Part shown: in pieces, positions 30,143-44,619 of the stretch | Layout: every line of letters starts with the position of its first letter | Numbering within the stretch: the stretch's first letter is position 1 | Source of the DNA: Escherichia coli 042 | GTDB taxonomy: Bacteria; Pseudomonadota; Gammaproteobacteria; Enterobacterales; Enterobacteriaceae | Assembly: GCF_000027125.1 (NCBI RefSeq) | Contig: NC_017626.1 | Direction: 5' to 3' (one strand) | DNA: 64,000 bases | Translations under genes and position numbers: made by a program | The notes under the pieces: generated by a model | Database searches by the model: none | What the model was told of the DNA's origin: nothing | The model's input: only the letters and a program-made list of their open reading frames with translations

Positions 30143-31048
30143 CTATATTTCCAGACACCTGTTATCACTTAACCCATTACTGGCTTGCTGCCGTAGATAT
30201 TCCCGTGGCGAGCGATAACCCAGTGCACTATGCGGATGCCATTCGTTATAATGCTCGAACGCCTCTGCAAGGTTCTTTGCTGCCGTTAACCCGTCTGGTT
30301 TGGGCATGACACTGATGTAGTCACGCTTTATCGTTTTCACGAAGCTCTCTGCTATGCCGTTACTCTCCGGACTCCGCACCGCCGTGTTCTTCGGTTCAGG
30401 CCCCAACATCCGGGCAAACTGCCGTGTTTCATTAGCCCGGTAGCATGAACCATTATCCGTCAGCCACTCTACTGGAGACGCCGGAAGCTCGTTGCCGAAA
30501 CGGCGTTCCACCGCTCCCAGCATGACGTCCTGTACTGTTTCACTGTTGAAGCCGCCCGTAGTGACCGCCCAGTGCAGTGCCTCACGGTCACAGCAGTCCA
30601 GCGCGAACGTGACTCGCAGTTTTTCTCCGTTATCACAGCGGAACTCGAACCCGTCAGAGCACCATCGCTGATTACTTTCTTTCACAGCCACTCTGCCGGT
30701 ATGTGCCCGTTTCGATGGCGGTACAGCGGGTTTTCGCTCAAGCAACAGCGCATTCTGGCGCATGATCCGGTAAATACGTTTGGCATTGATCGCAGGCATA
30801 CCATCAAGTTCGGCCTGTCTACGAAGCAGCGCCCATACCCGACGATAACCATATGTGGGCAGCTCTCCGATAACATGGTGTATACGGAGAAGCACATCCG
30901 TATCATCTGAGTGACGGCTGCGGCGACCATCTTTCCAGTCATCGGTTCGTCTGAGAATGACGTGCAACTGCGCACGCGACACCCGGAGACAACGGCTGAC
31001 TAAGCTTACTCCCCATCCCCGGGCAATAAGGGCGCGTGCGCTATCCAC
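30143..31048 (-). CDS. insD: IS2 transposase OrfB (InsD)
   Basis: 301-aa integrase-core transposase. Confidence 0.9.
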
Positions 31049-31416
31049 TTTTTTGCACGCCCATATTCAACGGCTTCTTTAAGGAGTTCATTTTCCATCG
31101 TTTTTTTGCCGAGCAGGCGCTGGAGTTCTTTAATCTGCTTCATGGCGGCAGCAAGTTCAGAGGCAGGAACGACCTGTTCTCCTGCGGCCACAGCAGTAAG
31201 ACTTCCCTCCTGGTATTGCTTGCGCCAGAGAAATAACTGGCTGGCTGCCACACCGTGTTGCCGGGCAACAAGGGAGACTGTCATTCCCGGTTCAAAACTC
31301 TGCTGAACAATAGCGATCTTTTCCTGTGTAGTACGCCGTCTGCGTTTCTCCGGTCCTAAGACATCAATCATCTGCTCTCCAATGACTAGTCTAAAAACTA
31401 GTATTAAGACTATCAC
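31006..31416 (-). CDS. insC: IS2 OrfA (InsC)
   Basis: Helix-turn-helix ...[47 protein letters not shown]... Confidence 0.9.
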
Positions 31417-32020: not shown

Positions 32021-32929
32021 CTTTTGCACCAGAACCAGTGAAGATCACTCACCCGATTTCACTTCCCTGACGTCAGCCTGAACACGGCTGGCGTTTTCAT
32101 TTATAAACAGAAAGGAAAAATGATGATGTCAGATACCACACTCTCCCGCCCGGAGGTGGTCAGCGGGCATACGGACGTTATCTATTCCACCTCAGTCTGC
32201 CACATTCTGGCTGTACGAAAGAGTACACTGTTGCCAATCGACACAATTATCCGGCATCAAGTAAGCGATATCAGTTAACCGATATAGATGGGGAAGATGC
32301 TTTTATCCGGATTGGTTCTATCGCGATGGTGCGAGTACCACTTGATGCAATGGCGCCTGTCGAGGAAGATGACGAGTAACAGAGCTCGGTATCTCAATCA
32401 GGACCTGATTGTCCTGGTTCGATGCCGAAAACCAGTGATTTTTCGTGTTGGTATCTGTGTTGGTATAGGATGGTGTTGTTTATTATTAACAATTTTAAAT
32501 CATGAGGTTAAATCGCATGTTTGAGTCCGGCCTTCGCACCACATCGTATGCAAATCGAGTCGCTCAAGGGCGGCTTTTTTTGTACCTGTGTTTTCACTAC
32601 TTTGTTTGCATGTAACGCTGATAATCTAAGAACTTCGGAAGCCCCATTTCCATCAATGATGTTCATTCATCATCCTGAAAATTAAGTAGATATAAAACTT
32701 CATTGCCTTGGTCTAATGGCACAGAAATAGATTGCATTTGGCGAGTGGCATTCTTAGTGCGTCGTTGTTTAGTCATGAAACGATGCGTAAAATTGCTGAT
32801 TTTATGTGTCAAAGTCCCGCAACCGGAGATGGCCTTACTTCAATGATCAACCACTATTGACGTATCCTTTTAATATCTTGATTCAATTCAGCAGGTTATC
32901 GTCCAAAGTACAGCGAAGAGAGAGAAAAG

Positions 32930-35821
32930 ATGATTGGTACAACACCTTATCATGCGAAATATTTTGCGCATGAACTTTCCATTCTTCATTCAAACAATGG
33001 GGTGGACCGTCTGTCTCAATCGCTGTTTGATGCAAGCGTAGATCTAAACCCTCATCAAATTGAGGCGGCTCTTTTTGCTATCGAAAATCCGCTAAGCAAA
33101 GGTGTTGTGCTTGCCGATGAAGTTGGTTTGGGTAAAACCATTGAAGCTGGACTAGTGCTTTGCCAGTTGTGGGCTGAAAGAAAACGTAAACTGTTGATCA
33201 TTTGTCCTGCTTCACTGCGTCGCCAATGGGCGAGCGAGTTACAGGAAAAGTTCAATCTACCTTCTCAGGTGTTGGACGCGAAAATGTATAGCCAGCTTCA
33301 AAAAGAAGGGATCCATAATCCCTTAAATAATAAATCGATCACTATCATGTCATACCACTATGCTGCTCGGTTAGAAGAGAAATTGGTGGCTGAAATGTGG
33401 GATCTGGTTGTTATCGACGAAGCCCATAAACTGCGTAATGCTCATCGAGAAAGCAACAAAATGGGGCAAGCGTTAAAGCGTGCGCTTGATGGGCGGAAGA
33501 AATTACTACTGACCGCAACGCCTTTACAGAACTCGTTGATGGAACTGTATGGCATGTCGACGCTTATAGATGAACATACCTTCGGCGAAGTTAAAGCGTT
33601 CAGAAAGCAATATATGCAGGCAGATAGCGATATTGCGGAGTTGAAGGGGCGATTGTCGCGTTTTATCAAACGAACTCTACGCAAGAATGTGCTGGAGTAT
33701 ATCAAGTATACAGAACGTAAAGCGATCACTATTCCTTTCTATCCGAGCGAACAGGAGCAGGATCTTTATGAACGCGTACAAAAATTGCTTGAACGTGAGG
33801 ATAGCTATGCCTTACCAAAACGACACCGGCATCTGACGGGGCTTATACTCAGAAAACTACTTTCCTCAAGTACGAAAGCCGTATTGAATAACTTGCAGAT
33901 CCTTAAGACTCGTTTAGAAAGGTTAAAGCTGGAAGGTATCGTTGAAGATGATATGGACATCATCCAACAGATCATAATGGATGATGATCTTGAAGATGAC
34001 ATCGTTGAAGATGCCGAATCAGTAGCGCCAGATACAGAGTGCAAATCTGTGGATTCAGATGCGCTTCAGGCAGAAATCAATGAGCTGGAATCACTCATTG
34101 TCAAAGCAGAACAGATTGGCACTGATACCAAATCAAAAGAGTTGCTTTCTGGCCTGGAGCAAGGTTTTGCACAGCTTGCCGAAATGGGGGCTGCAAAAAA
34201 AGTCATCATCTTCACGGAGTCGATGCGAACTCAACAGTACCTTGCACATTTTCTGGAAAACAATGGCTACCAGGGAAAAGTAGTAACCTTTAGTGGCACA
34301 AACAATACACCGCAGGCAAACAAGATCTACCAGCAATGGCGCGAGGAATATCAGGGATCTTCTCGTATTACCGGGTCGGCGCAAATTGATAAACGCTCGG
34401 CTTTGATCGACCACTTCAAAGATCATGCTGAAATCATGATAGCTACAGAAGCTGCAGCTGAAGGGGTGAACCTGCAATTTTGTTCGCTACTGATCAATTA
34501 CGATTTCCCCTGGAACCCACAACGCATTGAACAGCGTATTGGACGTTGTCACCGATACGGGCAAAAATTTGATGTGGTTGTTATTAACTTCCTCAATCAG
34601 CGAAACCAGGCCGATCAACGCGTTCTTGAACTCTTAACTGAAAAGTTCAGCCTGTTTGATGGCGTGTTTGGCGCATCGGATAGTGTGCTTGGCAGCATAG
34701 AAAATGGTGTGGATTTTGAAAAAAGGATCCAGTCAATTTATGAGTCATGCCGTACCCCCGAGGAGATAGAGCTGGCTTTTGAAAGGTTGCAGAAAGAGCT
34801 GGAAGATGAAATCAATCTCAAGATGCAGAAGACGCAAGAACAGTTGCTTGAGCATTTTGATGAAGATATTCACGATATCCTTAAAATAAGGCTTGATGAA
34901 GCTCGGGAGCGCCTGGATAAAGTCGGTCGTTGGTTTTGGGCCGTGACCTGTCAGCAGCTCAAACAATATGCTGATTTTGATCATGAGCATCATCGTTTCA
35001 CTTTACGTGAATCAGTCAATGAACTGCCTGTCGGGCAGTACCAGCTGTTGCGCAAAGATGGCAGGCAAAATAGTGCGTTACAAATGCAGGATCACCACAG
35101 TTTTGCATATCGGATCAATCATCCGCTGGGTGAGTACGTCATTGAGGGAGCCAAAGCCCAGGAGACGAAAACAGCTGAAGTCATCTTCGATTACAGTAAC
35201 CACACAACGAAAGTTTCGGTGGCTGAGCAGCTGAAAGGGCAATCAGGATGGTTAACACTAAATTTGCTTACTGTTGATGCGTTTAACAGGCAGCAATTTT
35301 TAGTCTTTACCGCGAAAACTGACAACGGACGTGTGGTAGATGGTGAAGCTTGTAAACGTCTGTTCAACTTGTCTGCAATAACCAACGAAAAGCTGGATAA
35401 TTCGGCAAGTTTAGATGCATTACCTGATGACTTGATCTTACTCAAGAACAGGCAAATTGACGCCAGGCTTGCAGAAGTTTTGGAGCAGAACTATGTCCTT
35501 TTTGAAGCGGAAAGAGATAAGCTGGAAAAATGGGCTGAAGACATGATCTTTGCGGCGGAAGAAGCATTACGCGATACCAAAATGCAAATCAAGTCGTTGA
35601 AGCGAGAAGCCAGGCTGGCGCAATCGATCGAAGAACAAAAGCAAAACCAGGAAAAGCTTAAGCTACTGGAACGGCAGCAGAAGCGTCAACGTATGGAAAT
35701 TTTTGACATTGAAGATGAGATCGCCGACAAGAGGGATGAACTCATCAGTGCCCTTGAAGAGCGGATGAAGCAAAAGACGGATATCACCGAGCTGTTTACC
35801 ATCCGCTGGAAAGTTATTTAA
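32930..35821 (+). CDS. SNF2-family ATPase, RapA/HepA-like, short N-terminus
   Basis: 963 aa. Motif I LADEVGLGKTIEAG, motif II VVIDEAHKLRN, motif III LLLTATPLQN, motif VI QRIGRCHRYGQ; C-terminal coiled-coil-like region. Several blocks resemble RapA; RapA N-terminal domains absent. Confidence 0.85.
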   Translation: MIGTTPYHAKYFAHELSILHSNNGVDRLSQSLFDASVDLNPHQIEAALFAIENPLSKGVVLADEVGLGKTIEAGLVLCQLWAERKRKLLIICPASLRRQWASELQEKFNLPSQVLDAKMYSQLQKEGIHNPLNNKSITIMSYHYAARLEEKLVAEMWDLVVIDEAHKLRNAHRESNKMGQALKRALDGRKKLLLTATPLQNSLMELYGMSTLIDEHTFGEVKAFRKQYMQADSDIAELKGRLSRFIKRTLRKNVLEYIKYTERKAITIPFYPSEQEQDLYERVQKLLEREDSYALPKRHRHLTGLILRKLLSSSTKAVLNNLQILKTRLERLKLEGIVEDDMDIIQQIIMDDDLEDDIVEDAESVAPDTECKSVDSDALQAEINELESLIVKAEQIGTDTKSKELLSGLEQGFAQLAEMGAAKKVIIFTESMRTQQYLAHFLENNGYQGKVVTFSGTNNTPQANKIYQQWREEYQGSSRITGSAQIDKRSALIDHFKDHAEIMIATEAAAEGVNLQFCSLLINYDFPWNPQRIEQRIGRCHRYGQKFDVVVINFLNQRNQADQRVLELLTEKFSLFDGVFGASDSVLGSIENGVDFEKRIQSIYESCRTPEEIELAFERLQKELEDEINLKMQKTQEQLLEHFDEDIHDILKIRLDEARERLDKVGRWFWAVTCQQLKQYADFDHEHHRFTLRESVNELPVGQYQLLRKDGRQNSALQMQDHHSFAYRINHPLGEYVIEGAKAQETKTAEVIFDYSNHTTKVSVAEQLKGQSGWLTLNLLTVDAFNRQQFLVFTAKTDNGRVVDGEACKRLFNLSAITNEKLDNSASLDALPDDLILLKNRQIDARLAEVLEQNYVLFEAERDKLEKWAEDMIFAAEEALRDTKMQIKSLKREARLAQSIEEQKQNQEKLKLLERQQKRQRMEIFDIEDEIADKRDELISALEERMKQKTDITELFTIRWKVI

Positions 35822-35826
35822 TTGAT

Positions 35827-38800
35827 TTGAAAGAGAAAATAATGAGTAAGTACAACGAATTAGTTAAGAAGTTAAAAGAAATTTTTCAGATTGATCGACC
35901 AGAACTGGATTTCGGTATTTATCGTATTTTAAATGCACGTGCTGATGAAATTAACGACTATCTGGATAATAAGCTGAAGGCCAAAATCCAGTCTGCGCTG
36001 GCGGATGCAGGAAATGCCAATAAATCAGAATTAGAACATCAGTTGCAACTGACAATAAAAGCGGCAACTGATGCGGGTGTAGACCCTGCTGATAGCCCAA
36101 AAGTACAGGAGCTTAAAAAGCAACTGGCGGCTATGGCATCCGGAGCAAATGAGCATGAAAATGCAGTATTTTCCCATCTGCTCACTTTCTTTTCGCGTTA
36201 TTATGACAACGGCGATTTTATCAGCAAACGCCGTTATAAAGGTAATACCTACGCCATCCCCTATTCTGGCGAAGAAGTGATGTTGCACTGGGCAAATAAG
36301 GACCAGTACTACATTAAAAGCGGTGAAAACTTCGCTAATTATTCGTTCAAATTAGAAGACGGTCGTAAAGTTAGCTTTAAATTGCTCGCAGCGGACACAG
36401 CAAAAGATAACCGTAAAGATAATGAATTAGATCGCTGCTTTGTACTTATTGAGCCGCATGTTCGTACCAAAATTGATGAAGAAGGCGATGAGTACGAACA
36501 AGAATATAAGCCAGTAGAAGTGGTGAAAACTTCATCTGTGGTTGACGGTAAACTCGTTGAAACAGAAGAGTTAGTTATTCATTTCGAATATAAGGCAATG
36601 AAAAAGGGCACTAAGCAGGATGCTTTAGTGCAGTCCGCTATTTCAAAAATTCTGGCTGATAAAACAGTACAACAGCATTGGGTTGATCTTGCTAAACGTG
36701 CGCCAACCGAAAAAAATCCGTCACGTACAGAGTTGGAGCGTCATTTAACAACATATACCCAACGTAATACGGCTGACTACTTTATTCATAAAGATCTCGG
36801 TGGCTTTTTAACGAACGAACTGGATTTTTATATTAAAAATGAAGTAATGAATCTCGATAATGTGCAAAATGCAGAAGTGTTTGCTAATATTGAGAAACAA
36901 CTGCGCATGATTCAATGTTTGCGTGCTGTTGCGCTGGAACTCATCACTTTTTTGGCACAGATTGAGAATTTCCAAAAGAAACTTTGGACTAAGAAAAAGT
37001 TTGTTGTAGAGACAAACTATATATTTACCGTAGATAAGTTACCAGAGGAATTATATTCAATTGTCATTAAGAATGATGCCCAATGGGAACAATGGAAGCA
37101 ATTAGGTTTCCTCAGCGATTTTTCGGGAGATAGAGAGAAAACTCTGAAAGAAAAACAAGGGTTAATTGTTGATACTTCATTATTTGATTCCAAGTTCAAA
37201 GAGAAATTTATCAACAATATCGCTGATGTTGACACAAATGTTTCCGCTTATTTATATAGTGGAGATAATTATCAAGTGTTAAATCTTATTAAAATAAAAT
37301 ATAATAATAAAGTTGATGGTATATATATAGATCCACCTTATAATACCAATGCGTCTGAGATTTTATACAAAAACGGTTATAAGGATAGCTCATGGTGTTC
37401 TTTAATGAGTTCTCGTTTAGAGATAAGTAAATCCTTATTAAAAGAAAATGCAGCTACTTGTACAACTATTGATGAGTATGAAGTTGCTAATTTGGAATTA
37501 TTGCTAAAAGAAACGTTTACAGGATATCAAATCAGACCTGTTGTTATTGAATATAACCATCGAGGACGAGTTAAAAGTAATTTCGCTATTACCCATGAAT
37601 ATGCTTTATGGACCTTACCAGAAAATAAAGATGTAATATCGAGACAAGTTGAAATATCAGAAGAAATTAGGCGTAACTTGCGTAGAACTGGTTCAGGTTC
37701 TACTCGTGCCGAATCTGAAAGTCAATTTTATGGCATCGAAGTTGACAATAATACCCTCGAGATTGTCAATGTAACCGAAGCTTTACCAAGTTTAGATTCA
37801 GCAATTCCTACGCATCTAAATAAAGATACAACAATGGTATGGCCAGTAGATGACCAAGGGGTTGAGCGGCGCTGGTACTATGGGCGAGATCGTGTTATTC
37901 GCGAAGCTAAAGAAGGTACTGTTTGGGCGAAAAGAATAAAAGGTGAGATACAAATACATTACAGACAAGCAGGAAAACCTAAAATGCGTAAATCTGTATG
38001 GATTGGTCCAAAGCTTGACGCAAGTACCTATGGTTCGGAACTATTAAATAGTTTGTTTAACGTGACTCAGATTAATTTTTCTTTTCCAAAAAGTATTTAT
38101 GCGGTTAAGGAATGTTTAGAGTCGCTTAGTAATTCGAAGTATGCTCATTTCTTAGACTATTTTGCTGGCTCTGGTACTACAGGGCATGCAGTGGTAGATA
38201 TGAATAGGGATGATAATGGTTTTCGAAAATTTAGCTTGGTCGAACAAGGTGAATATTTTTATTCTGTTACCTTGCCTAGAGTAAAAAAAGCTATTTTTAC
38301 AACTGATTGGAAGTATGGAAAAGCACTAAGCTGTAATCCAGTTGAGCAGACATTAATAAAATATATTAAAATTGAGAGTTTTGAGGATACTCTTAACAAT
38401 ATAGCACTGAAACGTACTGAAACAACAAAGGATCTTTTCGACGATCTTAAAGAAATTCGAGAGGATTATGTTCTTAACTATATGCTTGAAACAGAAAGCA
38501 AAGGCTCACTACTCAATACTGATAATTTCAAAAAACCATTTAACTACGAAATGGATGTTACAACGGATTCCGCAGGTGCTACTGAGCGTAAGAACATCGA
38601 TTTAGTTGAAACTTTCAACTATCTCATTGGCTTACATGTGAAATCCATCGAATCCAATATCGAACGTGGCTATGTGCGTGTTGAAGGAACGCTACCAACT
38701 GGCGAGCGTACCCTTATTCTGTGGCGCGATTGCGACAAGATCGGCTATGAAGAATTGAATAAATATGCCAACAGATTCGATTTATATGCAAAAGAAAATA

Positions 38801-38946
38801 CGTTCGACGTTATCTATATCAATGGCGATCATAACTTACCTACCGCCTTTACCGTTGATGAAGAAGACGGCGAGATTGTTCGTAGCCTGAAAATCCGCCA
38901 GATCGAACCTGAATTCTTGAACCTGATGTTTGCGGAGGAGGTTTAA
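35827..38946 (+). CDS. DNA methyltransferase, N6-adenine/N4-cytosine (beta-class order), Type III Mod-like with N-terminal extension
   Basis: 1039 aa. Motif IV DPPY (IYIDPPYNT, about 37330) precedes motif I FxGxG (DYFAGSGTTG, about 38160), with a roughly 290-aa variable region between; about 500 aa of unrecognised N-terminal sequence. 6-nt gap after SNF2 gene. Confidence 0.8.
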   Translation: MKEKIMSKYNELVKKLKEIFQIDRPELDFGIYRILNARADEINDYLDNKLKAKIQSALADAGNANKSELEHQLQLTIKAATDAGVDPADSPKVQELKKQLAAMASGANEHENAVFSHLLTFFSRYYDNGDFISKRRYKGNTYAIPYSGEEVMLHWANKDQYYIKSGENFANYSFKLEDGRKVSFKLLAADTAKDNRKDNELDRCFVLIEPHVRTKIDEEGDEYEQEYKPVEVVKTSSVVDGKLVETEELVIHFEYKAMKKGTKQDALVQSAISKILADKTVQQHWVDLAKRAPTEKNPSRTELERHLTTYTQRNTADYFIHKDLGGFLTNELDFYIKNEVMNLDNVQNAEVFANIEKQLRMIQCLRAVALELITFLAQIENFQKKLWTKKKFVVETNYIFTVDKLPEELYSIVIKNDAQWEQWKQLGFLSDFSGDREKTLKEKQGLIVDTSLFDSKFKEKFINNIADVDTNVSAYLYSGDNYQVLNLIKIKYNNKVDGIYIDPPYNTNASEILYKNGYKDSSWCSLMSSRLEISKSLLKENAATCTTIDEYEVANLELLLKETFTGYQIRPVVIEYNHRGRVKSNFAITHEYALWTLPENKDVISRQVEISEEIRRNLRRTGSGSTRAESESQFYGIEVDNNTLEIVNVTEALPSLDSAIPTHLNKDTTMVWPVDDQGVERRWYYGRDRVIREAKEGTVWAKRIKGEIQIHYRQAGKPKMRKSVWIGPKLDASTYGSELLNSLFNVTQINFSFPKSIYAVKECLESLSNSKYAHFLDYFAGSGTTGHAVVDMNRDDNGFRKFSLVEQGEYFYSVTLPRVKKAIFTTDWKYGKALSCNPVEQTLIKYIKIESFEDTLNNIALKRTETTKDLFDDLKEIREDYVLNYMLETESKGSLLNTDNFKKPFNYEMDVTTDSAGATERKNIDLVETFNYLIGLHVKSIESNIERGYVRVEGTLPTGERTLILWRDCDKIGYEELNKYANRFDLYAKENTFDVIYINGDHNLPTAFTVDEEDGEIVRSLKIRQIEPEFLNLMFAEEV

Positions 38947-38948
38947 GA

Positions 38949-41900
38949 ATGGCTAAAAAACCGACCACCGGTAAAGCAGTTAAAAAAGAGACTAACAGCA
39001 AGCTGAGCTTTCATAAGCAGTTGGTTTTAAACCGCTTTATGTTCCATTTTTTTAAAGATGGCACATTGCAAGGTTTGAAGAATCGGTTAGGCGAGGATCG
39101 CTTTGAAGGCATCCATGAAGATGGCCAAAGCTTATTCTTCCATGAGCTGAGTAACTATTTATTCGAGGTCGATCTTATCGATCTCGATGAACTGCGTCGT
39201 TACGATCTCAATATCGTGCAGCACTGGCAGCAGATAACCGAGCACCGTAATCGTAAAGAAGACACAGTGCTGAACATGAAATATTTTCAGTACTTGTCGC
39301 TTCTGTTTACCGAGATCTACCTGGACTGGTACTTCAACCGTAAACAGCAATTACTCGATGGGCTAAATAACGAGCTGGCAGCATACAATGCTGAAAATGA
39401 TAAAACAGCAAAAGACCGGGCTAATCAGTTCAAATCATACGTTCTGGATGATTTGAATAAACTGGCATACTGGAACGCTACTGGTTCTGGTAAGACACTG
39501 CTATTACATGTCAATATTTTGCAATATTTACATTATTTCCAGAACGGTAATAGCCATCATTACCCGGATAAAATCATCCTGCTTACGCCGGATGAACGCC
39601 TATCGAAGCAACATTTAGATGAACTGGAAAACTCAGGATTTACCCAATACCAGTTATTCGATAAGAGTAAATCCGCGCCATTTAAAGGCACGATTGAAGT
39701 TATTGATATCAATAAACTTGCCGATGAAATGGGTGACAAAACTGTTGCCGTTGAGGCATTTGAAGGCAACAATCTGGTCTTGATTGATGAAGGGCATAAA
39801 GGCACAGGAAGTGCTGCTGGTGCCTGGATGCGCCGTCGTGACAAATTAACGCGTGACGGATTTGCGTTTGAATATTCAGCAACTTTTGGCCAGGCAGTGG
39901 CCGGTGGCAATAATGTTGAGGCAGTTGAAACAGAAATTCAGAAGAAAAAAGCAAAGCTGCTTTTTGAAACAACTGCCTTAGGTAAACTGAGCGAAGAACA
40001 GTTAGCGCAAATAGCATTAACCAGCGAAGAACAACGTGATGCGCGTATTCAGGCGACACGAGAAGTCTATGGGAAATCGATTCTGTTCGATTACTCCTAT
40101 AAATTCTTCTATGAGGATGGTTATGGTAAAGAATCACTGATTCTTAACCTTAATCCTGAAGAGGATAAAAAAGATGAGCGTCGGTATGAGTATTTTACCG
40201 CGTGTTTGCTCAGCTTTTATCAGCAACAATATTTATTCAATAAGAATAAAGAAAAATTAAATGAATTTAATATCGAAAAACCGCTATGGGTTTTTGTCGG
40301 TAACACCGTAAGTGGTGAAGATTCAGACATTCACGCAGTACTGCGTTTTTTAGCATGGTTTTTAAATCATGAATCGCAGGCAAAATCGTGGATTAAAGAT
40401 CTCATTGAAAATAAAGCGCGAATTCTTGATACCAAAGAGCGTAACATTTTTGAAAATCGCTTTACCGCACTAATGAACGGCCCGGAAGATATCTACGCAG
40501 ATATTCTTTCTCGTTTGTTTAACACCACTCACTCAGGTCAGAGACTGCGAGTTCTGAATTTAATAGGCAGTAAAGGTGAACTGGCATTACAGGTTGGTGA
40601 GGCCGAACCGTTTGGTCTTATCAATATTGGTGATGCACCGTCTCTTTACAAAATGTGTGAAGAGGATACGACATTTGATTATCAGAGAGATGATTTTGCG
40701 AAGTCACTCTTTCATACGTTAAATGACAAAGACTCGCAACTACATATTTTGATCGGCTCGCGAAAATTTACTGAAGGCTGGAGCAGTTGGCGCGTCTCAA
40801 CGATGGGATTGCTCAATATGGGCCGTGGAGAAGGTTCACAGATCATTCAGTTATTTGGTCGTGGCGTTCGCCTTAAAGGTCGCAATTATTCTTTGAAACG
40901 CAGTACACCCGGTGAGCGTCCGAAAGGGTTGCATCTGGAAAAATTAGAGACACTGAATGTATTCGGTGTACGTGCCGATTACATGGCAACCTTTAAACAA
41001 TACCTGGAAGATGAAGGGATTACGCCAAGTGACGAGATCCTTGAGCTGAATTTTGAAACTCGGCCAAATATGCCAGCAACCAGGCTTAAAACACTTAAGC
41101 TTAAAGATGGTTATAAAGATAATCAAAGACTCGGCTTTAAACGTGTCTATTTTCCCGAATTGTATGAAGTTCCTGCTGATTTTCAGGGGAAAATTAAGCA
41201 GCCGCATATTAAGCTGGACCTATACCCGAAACTTGAGTCGATTGATACCAGCAGAAAAGGGGACAATACTCCGGTTAACGTGCGTAATGAAGCGAAGTTA
41301 GATTATAAAATCATTAGTGCGTTTGATTTTGATCGGCTTTATCTCGCCATTCAGAATTATAAACTACAACGCGGCTGGTCAAATTTACGTGTGGATAAAC
41401 AACGTTTGATCGACTTTTGTACCGGTAAGACAAAGATCGGAAATAGTTGGTATACCCTTTTGATTCCAGCTTCAGAGCTTGAGATTAAGCAATATGCAGA
41501 TATTGCTAAGCAGGAAGATATTATGCTTCGTCTGCTGACTGATTATACTGATCGCTTTTACAACACATTGAAAAATGCTTATGAAGGTCAGTTTTATGAA
41601 GTCACGCAGGTGAAAGAAGATGATCCTGGTATGATCAAAATGTACCATTTCGAGATCGAAGAAACTGATGATGGGTTGGCATATGCCAGTCGGCTGGAAC
41701 AATTACAACAATTGGTCATCGACGGCGAAATCGGTAAAGCAAAATCCTGGAGTGCATCCGGGATGGTTGCTATTACCTTTGATAAACATCTCTATTATCC
41801 ACTTCTTTCGATTGAAAAAAATGCCAACATACCGCTAAAAATGCGACCGGCAGCACTGGGTGCATCAAGTGAGATTACTTTTGTCCATGATCTTCAGTCT

Positions 41901-42329
41901 TTTGTTGATTCGACAAAAGGGCAGAAAATTATTGGTGATAAAAGTTTATATCTGCTAAGAAATGCGGATTCTAAAAATAGAGGCCTGGGCTTTGCTACTG
42001 CGGGTAATTTTTATCCGGATTTCTTATTGTGGTTAGTCGATGATAAAAGTGGTAAACAATGGTTAAGTCTTATTGATCCAAAAGGCATCCGCAATCTTAA
42101 TCTTGATGATCCAAAGTTCGGATTATATAAAGAAATCAAGAATCTTGAACATAAATTATCGGATGATAACTTATCATTAAGTGCATTTATTGTTTCTGAA
42201 ACTTGTTATGTTGACTTAGTAAACGTACCTGATTCAAAAGAGAATCTGGAAGCCAGAAATGTGCTTTTTATTGAGGATACTGGCTCATTGTATCTGGAGA
42301 AATTATTCAGTAAGATGGTTAGCGAGTAA
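38949..42329 (+). CDS. SF2 helicase with C-terminal PD-(D/E)xK-like motif, Type III Res-like
   Basis: 1126 aa. Walker A NATGSGKT, DExH LIDEGHKG, SAT, QLFGRGVRLKG; C-terminal YPDFLLWLVDDKSGKQWLSLIDPKG. Start 2 nt after methyltransferase stop. Confidence 0.8.
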   Translation: MAKKPTTGKAVKKETNSKLSFHKQLVLNRFMFHFFKDGTLQGLKNRLGEDRFEGIHEDGQSLFFHELSNYLFEVDLIDLDELRRYDLNIVQHWQQITEHRNRKEDTVLNMKYFQYLSLLFTEIYLDWYFNRKQQLLDGLNNELAAYNAENDKTAKDRANQFKSYVLDDLNKLAYWNATGSGKTLLLHVNILQYLHYFQNGNSHHYPDKIILLTPDERLSKQHLDELENSGFTQYQLFDKSKSAPFKGTIEVIDINKLADEMGDKTVAVEAFEGNNLVLIDEGHKGTGSAAGAWMRRRDKLTRDGFAFEYSATFGQAVAGGNNVEAVETEIQKKKAKLLFETTALGKLSEEQLAQIALTSEEQRDARIQATREVYGKSILFDYSYKFFYEDGYGKESLILNLNPEEDKKDERRYEYFTACLLSFYQQQYLFNKNKEKLNEFNIEKPLWVFVGNTVSGEDSDIHAVLRFLAWFLNHESQAKSWIKDLIENKARILDTKERNIFENRFTALMNGPEDIYADILSRLFNTTHSGQRLRVLNLIGSKGELALQVGEAEPFGLINIGDAPSLYKMCEEDTTFDYQRDDFAKSLFHTLNDKDSQLHILIGSRKFTEGWSSWRVSTMGLLNMGRGEGSQIIQLFGRGVRLKGRNYSLKRSTPGERPKGLHLEKLETLNVFGVRADYMATFKQYLEDEGITPSDEILELNFETRPNMPATRLKTLKLKDGYKDNQRLGFKRVYFPELYEVPADFQGKIKQPHIKLDLYPKLESIDTSRKGDNTPVNVRNEAKLDYKIISAFDFDRLYLAIQNYKLQRGWSNLRVDKQRLIDFCTGKTKIGNSWYTLLIPASELEIKQYADIAKQEDIMLRLLTDYTDRFYNTLKNAYEGQFYEVTQVKEDDPGMIKMYHFEIEETDDGLAYASRLEQLQQLVIDGEIGKAKSWSASGMVAITFDKHLYYPLLSIEKNANIPLKMRPAALGASSEITFVHDLQSFVDSTKGQKIIGDKSLYLLRNADSKNRGLGFATAGNFYPDFLLWLVDDKSGKQWLSLIDPKGIRNLNLDDPKFGLYKEIKNLEHKLSDDNLSLSAFIVSETCYVDLVNVPDSKENLEARNVLFIEDTGSLYLEKLFSKMVSE

Positions 42330-42341
42330 ATAAATATGATT

Positions 42342-42374
42342 CTGCTCCATATCTCTGTGAGATATGGAGCAGAT
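42342..42374. terminator. hairpin between convergent genes (candidate bidirectional terminator)
   Basis: Inverted repeat CTGCTCCATATCTC / GAGATATGGAGCAG at 42342-42374, between stop of 38949..42329 (+) and stop of 42376..42678 (-). Confidence 0.55.
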
Positions 42375-42375
42375 A

Positions 42376-42678
42376 TTATCGCCAATGTGCAGGAATAATT
42401 AAGTCAAACGATTTTGCTGCATATTCAAGCATTTTTATTATTTCCCGGTGTCGTTCCTGGTCGAAAGACTGTCCATTTTTTCTACACTCTATAATCCCTT
42501 GTAATTCTTTTAGGTTAAACATATCAAGAAGATATAAATTTTTCCAGGTTGGTTGCCCGAAGAGGTTATAGACTGTTTCCGTAGCATCTCGTTCACTTGC
42601 TAATCTTTTCTCTCCTTCTATTCTTTCAAAAAATATTTCAGCTGTTTCTTTATCATCATAAGTATTTAATAATTCCAT
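42376..42678 (-). CDS. hypothetical protein (100 aa)
   Basis: AT-rich ORF convergent with the helicase gene; no family recognised. Confidence 0.4.
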   Translation of the reverse strand: MELLNTYDDKETAEIFFERIEGEKRLASERDATETVYNLFGQPTWKNLYLLDMFNLKELQGIIECRKNGQSFDQERHREIIKMLEYAAKSFDLIIPAHWR

Positions 42679-42990: not shown

Positions 42991-43484
42991 TCACCCCCTA
43001 AAAAACTCTTTCCGATACCACTCTACAACCCCCTCAAAAGGGTAATTTTTACGCACCTGTGGCAACGCAATAATTTTTCCGTCAAAATCCCAGAATGACC
43101 TCTCAATGATCTCTCCGCCGTTTACCGCATCCAATACCAGTACCCGCATATTTTCATCCAGGCCAATCGTTCCTTTATCAAAGGCTTTATGATGTATCGC
43201 GCAAAGCGCCAGGCCATTGGGAATTTCACAAGGGCCACCATGTTGTTTCCATTTTATATGTGTCGCTTCCAGTGAGACGGTGGAGTTGCCGTAACAAATA
43301 TTAAAGCTACATATTGCGCACTGGTAGTTATAAGCGCGTAATACATGTTTGCGAAATAATGGGTCACGCTGCTTACGGATTTGCTGGAGAGCAAAAAAAG
43401 GCTCGTCAGCGATTTACTGGAAGCCATTGATATCCCTGGCAGTGAAATAATTGCGATCATGCTCGCAAATTTTCTGCGGTTCAA
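42991..43484 (-). pseudogene. HNH-nuclease-like gene, frameshifted
   Basis: Minus-strand frame ending at 42991 reads ...YNYQCAICSFNICYGNSTVSLEATHIKWKQHGGPCEIPNGLALCAIHHKAFDKGTIGL... but has no start; the ATG at 43484 is in another frame. Frames meet near the A7 run at about 43391-43399. Confidence 0.5.
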
Positions 43485-43638
43485 GCCTGCAAGCGAAGAT
43501 ATATTACCTTGATCTCATATGTTTTTTTACTTCCTGTGTGCCCTAATTGCCATGCGATGTTGCACCGACGCAAACCACCGTTTACGCCGGAGGAGTTAAA
43601 AGCGCTGATGGATGCGAATAAATCAAATTAATGAACGC

Positions 43639-44619
43639 TCACCTTTCGCGCCAAAACTGCAAAATTGCTTCTACAAACCTGTCAGAAATAATCCCTCGAC
43701 GGGCTGCCGCGCTGAAATGACTGCTTCGCAGTGCCGTCGTCCAGTTCTCCGGTGACCGGTACGCTGAACCGTAATATCCCGTGCTTAAATCGTCCGGATC
43801 TTCATCAGGCGCGTTCGTCAGTCCTCTTGCACCTTGTTGCTGGAAGTCGACGAAAATAATATTGGCTAGAACATTATTTTGATAATTGCCATAAATAGCT
43901 TCATACGCATGAGGGAAATTTTCTTTCCAGTACCAGGTGGTATCGCCGCAAAACCACGGCGCGTCAGTAATTTTATTAAGCTGAGAATGGTATTGTTTTA
44001 GATCCCTACGAAAGGCGTCAACCATATGATTAAAGTGTTGAGGGTGTGACGCGTAGTCACTGGTCATTAAGTCAAATTCGCCTTGCATCCAGCATACGCC
44101 GAGGAATTTGTTCTGCGGATTTTTTGCCAGTGCGGCTCGCGTTCTGCTGACTAAATCCTGGTATAGCGGAGTATCCGTTCCCCAACGACAAGCATCATGG
44201 CTGGCTCCGTGCCGTTCTGAATATGTCCCTTCGCTGCCCGCGGTAAAAGCCGATCCGCCACGGCAACACGGAACGATGAGAACCCCTGCATTATCAGGAA
44301 TAAAGGGCAGTAATTTCCGTGCTATATGTAGTGCCTGGCCAACGGTGCCGTACTGTGTTTGATGATTCGTTGCCAGAGGATGGTGATAACCCTGCATATC
44401 CTGAACATCGTGTGGGCAGTGAGTCAGTGGAATAATGTCGTTAAAGTGACATGACGGGCCTCCGGGATGTGTATGCGCAAATCTCGCTAATTGTTTAATT
44501 CTGGGATGAGGCGCATCTTCCTTGTCCGGTAATGGTAGTCCTTCGCCATACGCCATGGCATTAGACTGACCAGCAACGGTAAGAACATAGTAATAATCGG
44601 GCGATATTATTGCGTTCAT
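43639..44619 (-). CDS. nanS: N-acetyl-9-O-acetylneuraminate esterase NanS
   Basis: MNAIISPDYYYVLTVAGQSNAMAYGEGLPLP..., recalled as K-12 NanS (YjhS). Confidence 0.85.
   Translation of the reverse strand: MNAIISPDYYYVLTVAGQSNAMAYGEGLPLPDKEDAPHPRIKQLARFAHTHPGGPSCHFNDIIPLTHCPHDVQDMQGYHHPLATNHQTQYGTVGQALHIARKLLPFIPDNAGVLIVPCCRGGSAFTAGSEGTYSERHGASHDACRWGTDTPLYQDLVSRTRAALAKNPQNKFLGVCWMQGEFDLMTSDYASHPQHFNHMVDAFRRDLKQYHSQLNKITDAPWFCGDTTWYWKENFPHAYEAIYGNYQNNVLANIIFVDFQQQGARGLTNAPDEDPDDLSTGYYGSAYRSPENWTTALRSSHFSAAARRGIISDRFVEAILQFWRER

Follow-up and report, generated by a model that had tools for sequence, protein, structure and literature searches.

A DrmD-like SNF2 gene heads a predicted divergent Type III restriction-modification operon in Escherichia coli 042

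Type III restriction-modification (R-M) enzymes are textbook cases of restriction by ATP-triggered one-dimensional diffusion, achieved with two subunits only. SNF2 motors, for their part, are components of DISARM, BREX, Dpd, Zorya, Hma and ARMADA, where they have no clear role. Here, we analyse a stretch of 64,000 nucleotides of Escherichia coli 042 (contig NC_017626.1; hereafter the window), in which an operon of three genes at positions 32930-42329 associates an SNF2 ATPase with a Mod-like methyltransferase and a Res-like helicase-nuclease. Comparisons of sequence, domain layout and predicted fold indicate that the operon is a divergent variant of Type III R-M led by a DrmD-like SNF2 gene, and that this arrangement recurs across phyla.

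In Type III systems such as EcoP15I and EcoPI (Mod2Res1-2) the two genes are adjacent and mod precedes res. Mod is a beta-class methyltransferase in which motif IV is followed by the target recognition domain (TRD) and then by motif I, and Res joins an N-terminal superfamily 2 (SF2) ATPase (ResIII) to a C-terminal PD-(D/E)xK-type motif. Type III enzymes are further defined by an asymmetric recognition site, by hemi-methylation and by ATP-dependent cleavage that requires two sites in inverse orientation. Genes 2 and 3 of the operon have the same organisation, and the nearest fold to gene 2 is that of EcoP15I Mod. Yet the locus differs from classical Type III systems in several respects. A conserved third gene, encoding SNF2, heads the operon. 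Gene 2 has an extra N-terminal domain of about 385-440 residues and a conserved C-terminal tail, and gene 3 is about 160 residues longer than a canonical Res, to which it can be aligned over the RecA1 domain only. Furthermore, the alleles exchange the entire methyltransferase/TRD module and not the TRD alone. Genuine EcoP15I-like pairs, too, are found with SNF2 genes of this family.

The three co-directional open reading frames (ORFs) lie on the plus strand at 32930-35821, 35827-38946 and 38949-42329, at the coordinates and with the lengths (963, 1039 and 1126 residues) given in a preliminary description of this DNA. Genes 1 and 3 start with ATG, the latter with GGAGG upstream. For gene 2 we consider the ATG at 35842 (35842-38946, 1034 residues) a likelier start than the TTG at 35827, which gives the longer product of 1039 residues; the ATG is preceded by a Shine-Dalgarno-like AAGAG and is also the start used by RefSeq. 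The intergenic gaps, put earlier at 6 and 2 nucleotides, are 5 and 2 with the TTG start and 20 and 2 with the likelier ATG, which is still compatible with a single transcript. As had been noted, the operon is richer in AT than its surroundings, its GC content being 0.34-0.45 over 33-42 kb against about 0.50-0.58 in both flanks.

Gene 2 is the member of the operon closest to characterised proteins. It matches the PADLOC model MTase_III PDLC03646 over its full length (1624 bits) and the Pfam family PF01555 (N6_N4_Mtase), and its residues from about 442 to 839 are homologous to Mbo45V, Helicobacter pylori Mod and EcoP15I Mod (PDB sequences 7dsu, 6k0w and 4zcf_A). An AlphaFold2 (AF2) model of the protein (pLDDT 74, pTM 0.63) has EcoP15I Mod 4zcf_A as its best Foldseek match (E 2.4e-16, 622 columns for a target of 616 residues), the matches being dominated by the methyltransferase core. 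DPPY (residues 497-500; 37330-37341) precedes FxGSGTT (774-780; 38161-38181), the order reported in the preliminary description, and a variable region separates motifs IV and I. The DPPY form suggests N6-adenine methylation. Layout, sequence and fold all point to a Type III Mod. The two motifs belong to a methyltransferase/TRD module (residues about 400-900; 37039-38541, plus strand). The N-terminal domain that precedes it (residues 1-385; 35842-36996, plus strand) is modelled as long helices (3-123), a beta domain (167-254) and a helical domain (259-383). Such an extension, then estimated at some 500 residues, had been singled out as atypical; put here at about 385-440 residues, it is highly conserved and present in all long-type homologues. 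It has no sequence match in the PDB, and Pfam scans of the domain in all 18 homologues were empty. We propose that it is the module coupling Mod to Res.

Gene 3 matches the PADLOC model REase_III PDLC03654 over its full length (2318 bits), while the Pfam ResIII domain covers residues 167-293 only. The helicase motifs ATGSGKT (177-183), DEGH (280-283), SAT (310-312) and QLFGRGVRLKG (634-644) are conserved in 18 homologues; motifs I and II (DEGH) lie on the plus strand at 39477-39497 and 39786-39797. Towards the C terminus, a PD-(D/E)xK-like nuclease motif (residues 1019-1056; 42003-42116, plus strand) takes the form FYPDF, then (I/V)(D/E)P(K/H)G, then K1056. In gene 3 itself PD stands at 1023-1024 and IDPKG at 1042-1046, and P1023, D1024, P1044, G1046 and K1056 are invariant in the 18 homologues. 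The SF2 helicase core and C-terminal PD-(D/E)xK-like motif described earlier are thus both found and conserved. The earlier reading of genes 2 and 3 as a Type III pair in mod-then-res order is likewise borne out by the full-length PADLOC matches, the homology to EcoP15I Mod and the order of the motifs. Yet when gene 3 is compared with canonical Res by hhalign, the RecA1 domain alone aligns (93%), and searches of PDB sequences, profile search included, gave no match; fold searches returned only generic SF2 proteins. The alignment restricted to RecA1 and the absence of a PDB match suggest a separate, very divergent family, which appears Res-like in architecture.

Gene 1 (32930-35821, 963 residues) carries the Pfam domains SNF2-rel_dom and Helicase_C. 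Its helicase core extends from about residue 30 to 650, with GLGKT at 66-70, DEAH at 163-166 and QRIGRCHRYGQ at 535-545, and the SNF2 catalytic motifs are invariant in an alignment of 17 homologues (61-86% identity). To judge by these motifs, the protein is a catalytically intact SNF2 ATPase. It had been called RapA-like, of which the SNF2 part stands; the likeness to RapA is only generic, and we rejected this identity given 163 bits against the RapA model NF003426, far under its cut-off of 576. Moreover, the helicase-core match starts near residue 30, so that an extra N-terminal domain would hardly fit before it. Of the named families, DrmD of DISARM is the closest, with 658 bits in PADLOC and 664 bits against the NCBIfam model DISARM_DrmD_b (NF038318). 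The PADLOC models for the BrxHI/BrxHII helicases score well under this (159-251 bits), as do HmaA (192 bits) and DrmA (151 bits, a generic SF2-helicase match). Still, the DrmD matches cover residues 31-671 only, the 664 bits fall short of the curated cut-off of 950, and the model NF038317 gives 291 bits where its cut-off is 610.

The C-terminal third of gene 1 (residues 655-963; 34892-35818, plus strand) departs from the DrmD profile. It consists of a family-specific region of about 200 residues followed by a charged helical tail resembling a coiled coil; it has no Pfam match, and against the PDB its profile found nothing beyond chance level. Among 1.84 billion representative proteins this domain has 2377 matches at E<=1e-3, of which 367 reach E<=1e-30. 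In the top 150 it ends proteins of about 920-995 residues, or fragments, apart from one protein that is extended at its C terminus and three that carry additional N-terminal domains. Fused proteins of this SNF2 family include P0303 and P0408, with extra N-terminal regions, and P0283, with a C-terminal extension of about 500 residues. By eye, the N-terminal region of P0355 resembles a putative helix-turn-helix plus an ATPase-like part.

The similarity to DrmD raises the question of whether the operon might be a reduced or variant class 1 DISARM, in which DrmD and an adenine methyltransferase were kept and gene 3 took the place of the DrmABC core. Class 1 DISARM (DrmD, DrmMI, DrmA, DrmB, DrmC) also opens with its SNF2 gene, followed by an adenine-type methyltransferase gene, and both it and the operon are found in defence islands and can hold embedded genes. 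The best hidden Markov model matches of gene 1 are to DrmD, and in Serratia the joint deletion of drmD and drmMI is reported to cause near-total loss of protection against phage Nami (bioRxiv 10.1101/2021.12.28.474362). Yet the match of gene 1 is confined to the helicase core and lies under the cut-off. Gene 2 matches MTase_III and MTase_II models only in PADLOC, with no DrmMI model among its matches, and its domain is PF01555, whereas DrmMI is reported with pfam13659 in the same source. Genes 2 and 3 show no match to DrmA, DrmB, DrmC, DrmMI, PglZ, BrxL or BrxC, or to any other BREX model, in PADLOC; of the models just named, gene 1 matches DrmA alone, and weakly. RefSeq annotates no DISARM core gene, PglZ, BrxC or BrxL within 20 kb. 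As the preliminary description had stated for the DUF1998 and PLD genes of DISARM and for PglZ and BrxL of BREX, none is present here. No DUF1998 (DrmB) or PLD (DrmC) gene occurs in the window or in homologous loci, and no DrmA-, DrmB- or DrmC-type family recurs among 80 such loci. The PADLOC definition of DISARM type I (PMC9252829) requires all five genes. We therefore consider a reduced DISARM very unlikely, and continue to regard the operon as a Type III variant.

Other described systems resemble the operon in part. Hma and the DUF499-centred BREX-related (BR) systems also include an SNF2 helicase and a DNA methyltransferase among three genes, and often host embedded cassettes, of which the HEC-01 and HEC-04 families are shared with loci of the kind studied here. 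However, genes 2 and 3 match no Hma model at all, none of the three proteins matches HmaB or HmaC, and gene 1 matches HmaA weakly. Hma is reported to use a 5-methylcytosine methyltransferase and a separate ATPase, described as DUF499-centred in BR systems (PMC8565338, PMC12839542). ARMADA type II and BREX type 3 (BrxHII-like SNF2 protein and PglX-like methyltransferase) also put an SNF2/RapA-like helicase together with a large methyltransferase, a pairing reported from E. coli defence islands (PMC12458937). But these systems rely on PglX/YeeA-type methyltransferases with YprA-like and UvrD helicases, or on PglZ and BrxC, none of which is found here. With their core genes absent, DISARM, BREX, Hma/BR and ARMADA were all rejected as identities for the operon. 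A functional precedent for an accessory motor subunit is provided by enzymes of the CglI and NgoAVII type. In CglI, a separate H subunit (a helicase-like SF2 ATPase) is reported to supply the translocation on double-stranded DNA that cleavage needs (PMC5861437).

No single characterised system claims all three genes in PADLOC or NCBIfam, a check proposed with the preliminary description. The PGAP names of the genes are generic and NCBIfam has no specific model for them. Since the PADLOC models that recognise genes 2 and 3 derive from REBASE, this Mod/Res pair is already catalogued, although apparently uncharacterised. A literature search that covered few subscription journals and did not include REBASE found no paper describing the SNF2 and Type III trio as a system; in a Cronobacter paper the three genes are merely listed as cargo of an island or element.

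If the SNF2 gene belongs to the system, it should be found with Mod and Res elsewhere. We scanned one genome for each of 100,044 species with N-terminal peptide patterns of gene 1 and confirmed at least 583 loci of its family. The best 80 of these (52-81% identity), 79 of which have a gene 1 ORF, were compared in detail. They come from Gamma-, Beta-, Alpha- and Deltaproteobacteria, Planctomycetes, Firmicutes, Acidobacteria, Synergistetes and others, and members of the SNF2 family are also present in Salmonella, Vibrio cholerae and Legionella pneumophila. A long Mod and then a long Res follow SNF2 on the same strand in 39 of the 79 loci. Type III genes of canonical size follow it in 11 others, with both Mod and Res confirmed in eight and Res found by BLAST alone in three. 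The contig ends too soon to judge in 23 loci, and about five are degraded or otherwise different. The order SNF2-Mod-Res is thus kept in about 50 of the 55 loci with enough downstream DNA, in Proteobacteria, Planctomycetes, Firmicutes, Acidobacteria and Synergistetes, SNF2 being directly upstream on the same strand and usually only tens of nucleotides away. The canonical partners match the PADLOC models MTase_III PDLC03634/03636 and REase_III PDLC03647/03648, and one of them is a clear homologue of EcoP15I Res (E 7e-55). Reciprocally, an SNF2 gene of 953-985 residues lies upstream in six of seven gene 3 homologues picked for their long contigs. The SNF2 gene at the head of the operon, which had been flagged as atypical, is therefore a conserved third gene that a two-gene mod-res definition does not accommodate, and its linkage to Mod/Res, which might have proved absent, is widespread. 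No fourth universal gene was found among the compared loci.

Within E. coli, 150 of 5426 complete genomes (about 3%) contain 80% or more of the operon, nearly always on the chromosome, and many RefSeq genomes match the 9.4-kb stretch at 100% identity. A plasmid collection held no close DNA match to the operon. Gene 3 is interrupted by IS1 in a number of E. coli genomes (H14, H15 and H23), as is gene 2 in H23, which suggests recurrent inactivation of the system. On the E. coli plasmid NZ_CP100967 (L088, 11723-15044), a lone SNF2 gene of the family, with about 75% nucleotide identity, sits between two IS1 copies with a truncated WYL gene upstream; it resembles a relic of another version of the system, one under WYL control.

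The three genes do not evolve as a block. We compared three E. coli alleles (this window, WS0115A and XH990) in windows of 50 residues. Identities are 96-100% in gene 1 and 90-100% in gene 3. Gene 2 reaches 94-100% up to about residue 350 and over its last 100 residues or so, with 98-100% for the N-terminal domain, but drops to 16-58% over residues about 400-900. In SNF2, the N-terminal domain of Mod and Res most windows stand at 96-100%, the lowest at 90%. The whole methyltransferase/TRD module is thus exchanged between alleles, as expected for specificity switching, and it behaves as a swappable specificity cassette. At a larger scale, we correlated pairwise identities between parts of the system across 33 complete long-type loci (Spearman's rho). 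The N-terminal domain of Mod is strongly correlated with Res (rho 0.83), whereas the methyltransferase/TRD module is not (0.29 with Res), and gene 1 correlates as little with Res (0.28) as with the Mod N-terminal domain (0.28). The N-terminal domain of Mod and Res are thus probably in physical contact. In a neighbour-joining tree of gene 1 proteins, members partnered with canonical Type III genes form one main clade and recur at least three more times within clades that have long partners; SNF2 has changed its type of partner on several occasions. Taken together, these patterns point to three evolutionary modules: SNF2 forms one, Res and the N-terminal domain of Mod another, and the replaceable methyltransferase/TRD cassette the third.

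Specificity exchange might also serve ends other than defence. Type III mod genes of some pathogens are phase-variable regulators, and the allelic exchange of the methyltransferase/TRD module in E. coli could fit a mainly epigenetic or regulatory methyltransferase (a phasevarion-like Mod), or a selfish addiction module, with no anti-phage function. Yet neither within nor before the genes is there a simple-sequence or homopolymer tract suited to phase variation, and we rejected phase variation for this reason. The catalytic motifs of Res are intact and conserved, the context consistently consists of defence genes and WYL regulators, and the operon itself lies in a variable hot-spot beside leuX, adjoining remnants of a phosphorothioate-dependent nuclease. 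We give such a non-defensive role hardly any credence, and return to R-M as the function of the operon.

The defence context is most apparent in loci where other genes have been inserted between SNF2, Mod and Res. The cassettes recognised there are known or candidate defence genes and include HEC-01A/B, HEC-04, PDC-S02, PDC-S05, PDC-M30, SoFic, AbiD, AbiU, OLD/AriA-like ATPases and PD-T4-4 (loci L007, L009, L011, L025, L028, L030, L041, L042, L044, L051 and L068). Further ORFs inserted in these loci could be new defence candidates, and the locus could be mined for defence genes embedded among its three genes. Payne et al. (bioRxiv 10.1101/2024.01.29.577857) describe such embedding for multi-gene defence systems, among them Hma, BREX, DISARM and Type I R-M. 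Some homologous loci also have a WYL/BrxR-like regulator directly upstream.

We think it likely that the operon encodes a three-component, Type III-like R-M defence system in which SNF2 is a portable accessory motor. Mod, as a beta-class DPPY methyltransferase, would read a short site through its central TRD and mark host DNA; the site is predicted to be short and asymmetric, and the mark is probably N6-methyladenine. Res would bind Mod through the N-terminal domain of the latter. Incoming DNA that lacks the methyl mark would then be cleaved by Res once ATP-dependent communication over long range had taken place, as is reported for EcoP15I (PMC4490356). SNF2 would be a co-transcribed, DrmD-like translocase on double-stranded DNA serving Type III enzymes of several families. 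Its most likely role would be to strip or push obstacles bound to DNA, or to deliver Mod/Res actively along DNA, so that restriction might succeed on protected or unfavourably oriented targets. Since its partners come with and without the Mod extension and its co-evolution with them is weak, we speculate that such a DNA-mediated role is to be favoured over that of a tight stoichiometric subunit. Methylation-dependent discrimination between self and non-self, the contact of Res with the Mod N-terminal domain, and whatever activity SNF2 has are all inferences.

Several observations weigh against this interpretation. The lysine of the (D/E)xK motif of gene 3 is a histidine in five of the 18 homologues. 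A search for sigma-70 promoters upstream of the operon gave no strong match, and the E. coli operon comes without a recognisable regulator gene. No experiment in the literature searched demonstrates that members of this family methylate DNA, restrict it or protect against phages. The long Mod and long Res of L090 (5579-12225) stand without SNF2 directly after a CBASS operon (CD-NTase and Cap15) and offer a natural control lacking this gene; SNF2 is therefore not strictly needed for the pair to persist. Lastly, SNF2 co-evolves weakly with Mod or Res (rho about 0.28), which fits a DNA-mediated partnership and equally a looser, non-physical association. SNF2 might then be an independent single-gene factor of defence or DNA transactions that rides beside Type III genes without functional coupling to them, as its repeated change of partner module and the survival of a lone copy on an E. 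coli plasmid between IS1 copies would also suggest. But the plasmid copy is an IS-flanked remnant. An independent passenger is also hard to reconcile with the arrangement of about 50 of 55 loci, in which SNF2 lies immediately upstream of Mod/Res on the same strand and usually no more than tens of nucleotides away, and with its partner always being a Type III Mod/Res although the pairs come from at least three different families. Moreover, the space between SNF2 and Mod receives other defence genes, just as happens within single multi-gene systems (bioRxiv 10.1101/2024.01.29.577857). We consider the uncoupled passenger unlikely and the accessory motor the better account. The broader idea that this SNF2 family is a dedicated, horizontally portable motor for Type III enzymes generally, given its association with at least three unrelated Mod/Res families, is one we hold only tentatively, short of calling it probable.

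The position of the operon in the chromosome bears on its regulation and mobility. A degenerate copy of the 3' end of leuX (tRNA-Leu) lies at 32519-32542 (plus strand), as becomes apparent when the window is aligned with E. coli XH990 (L087), in which leuX is intact; no intact tRNA gene occurs in the window. From this copy onward to gene 1 the window aligns with the leuX flank of XH990, where the operon starts 390 base pairs (bp) after the intact gene. A terminator-like hairpin with a T-run (32557-32576, plus strand) has the same position as the hairpin just 3' of leuX in XH990. The following non-coding region (32577-32929, plus strand) is 95.5% identical to the spacer between leuX and SNF2 in that strain, and presumably contains the promoter of the operon. 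Searches of the window upstream of the operon with WYL proteins (tblastn) detected no remnant of such a regulator. The degenerate copy is the apparent attR, or right end, of a large integrative island upstream, and because the flank of the operon begins there, the operon lies just outside this island. The preliminary description had placed it in an accessory segment bounded by insertion sequences (IS). The operon is indeed accessory and flanked by IS3 (30143-31416) and IS1 (47732-48429), but these copies are incidental and the boundary that matters is the attR at leuX.

The island upstream carries the fec operon, Ag43, an antirestriction protein, RadC and YeeU/CbtA. The ferric-citrate operon fecIRABCDE (about 1330-8875) has IS remnants on both sides, a group II intron lies just upstream of the window in the record, and the dips in GC content at 10-11 kb and 21-22 kb correspond to debris of IS and small ORFs in this mosaic island. 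Downstream of the operon, a terminator-like inverted repeat with a 15-bp stem (42341-42373, strand-neutral) separates gene 3 from a convergent, conserved ORF of 100 residues (42376-42678, minus strand). This ORF has no PADLOC or NCBIfam match. Its homologues lie immediately 3' of Res in four genomes of the closest subfamily (L002, L009, L019 and L071), within which it may belong to the cassette. Further on, at about 42991-43730, there are pseudogene remnants of a restriction endonuclease binding phosphorothioated DNA and of an HNH endonuclease. The phosphorothioate-binding nuclease is intact in XH990, which makes the leuX flank a small defence island.

If SNF2 is indeed such a general motor, it would alter how Type III enzymes find or cut their targets. 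It might, for instance, translocate actively, clear away roadblocks or anti-restriction proteins, or loosen the rule of two sites in head-to-head orientation. These loci would then represent an unrecognised three-subunit subclass of Type III systems, and would link Type III R-M in evolution to that half of class 1 DISARM which DrmD and DrmMI make up. Their modular structure predicts where the interface between subunits lies and how specificity is reprogrammed. With its SNF2 third gene so widespread (at least 583 loci and about 3% of complete E. coli genomes), a whole branch of Type III systems may work unlike EcoP15I, and a three-gene system of E. coli is small enough for the role of SNF2 motors in defence to be studied directly.

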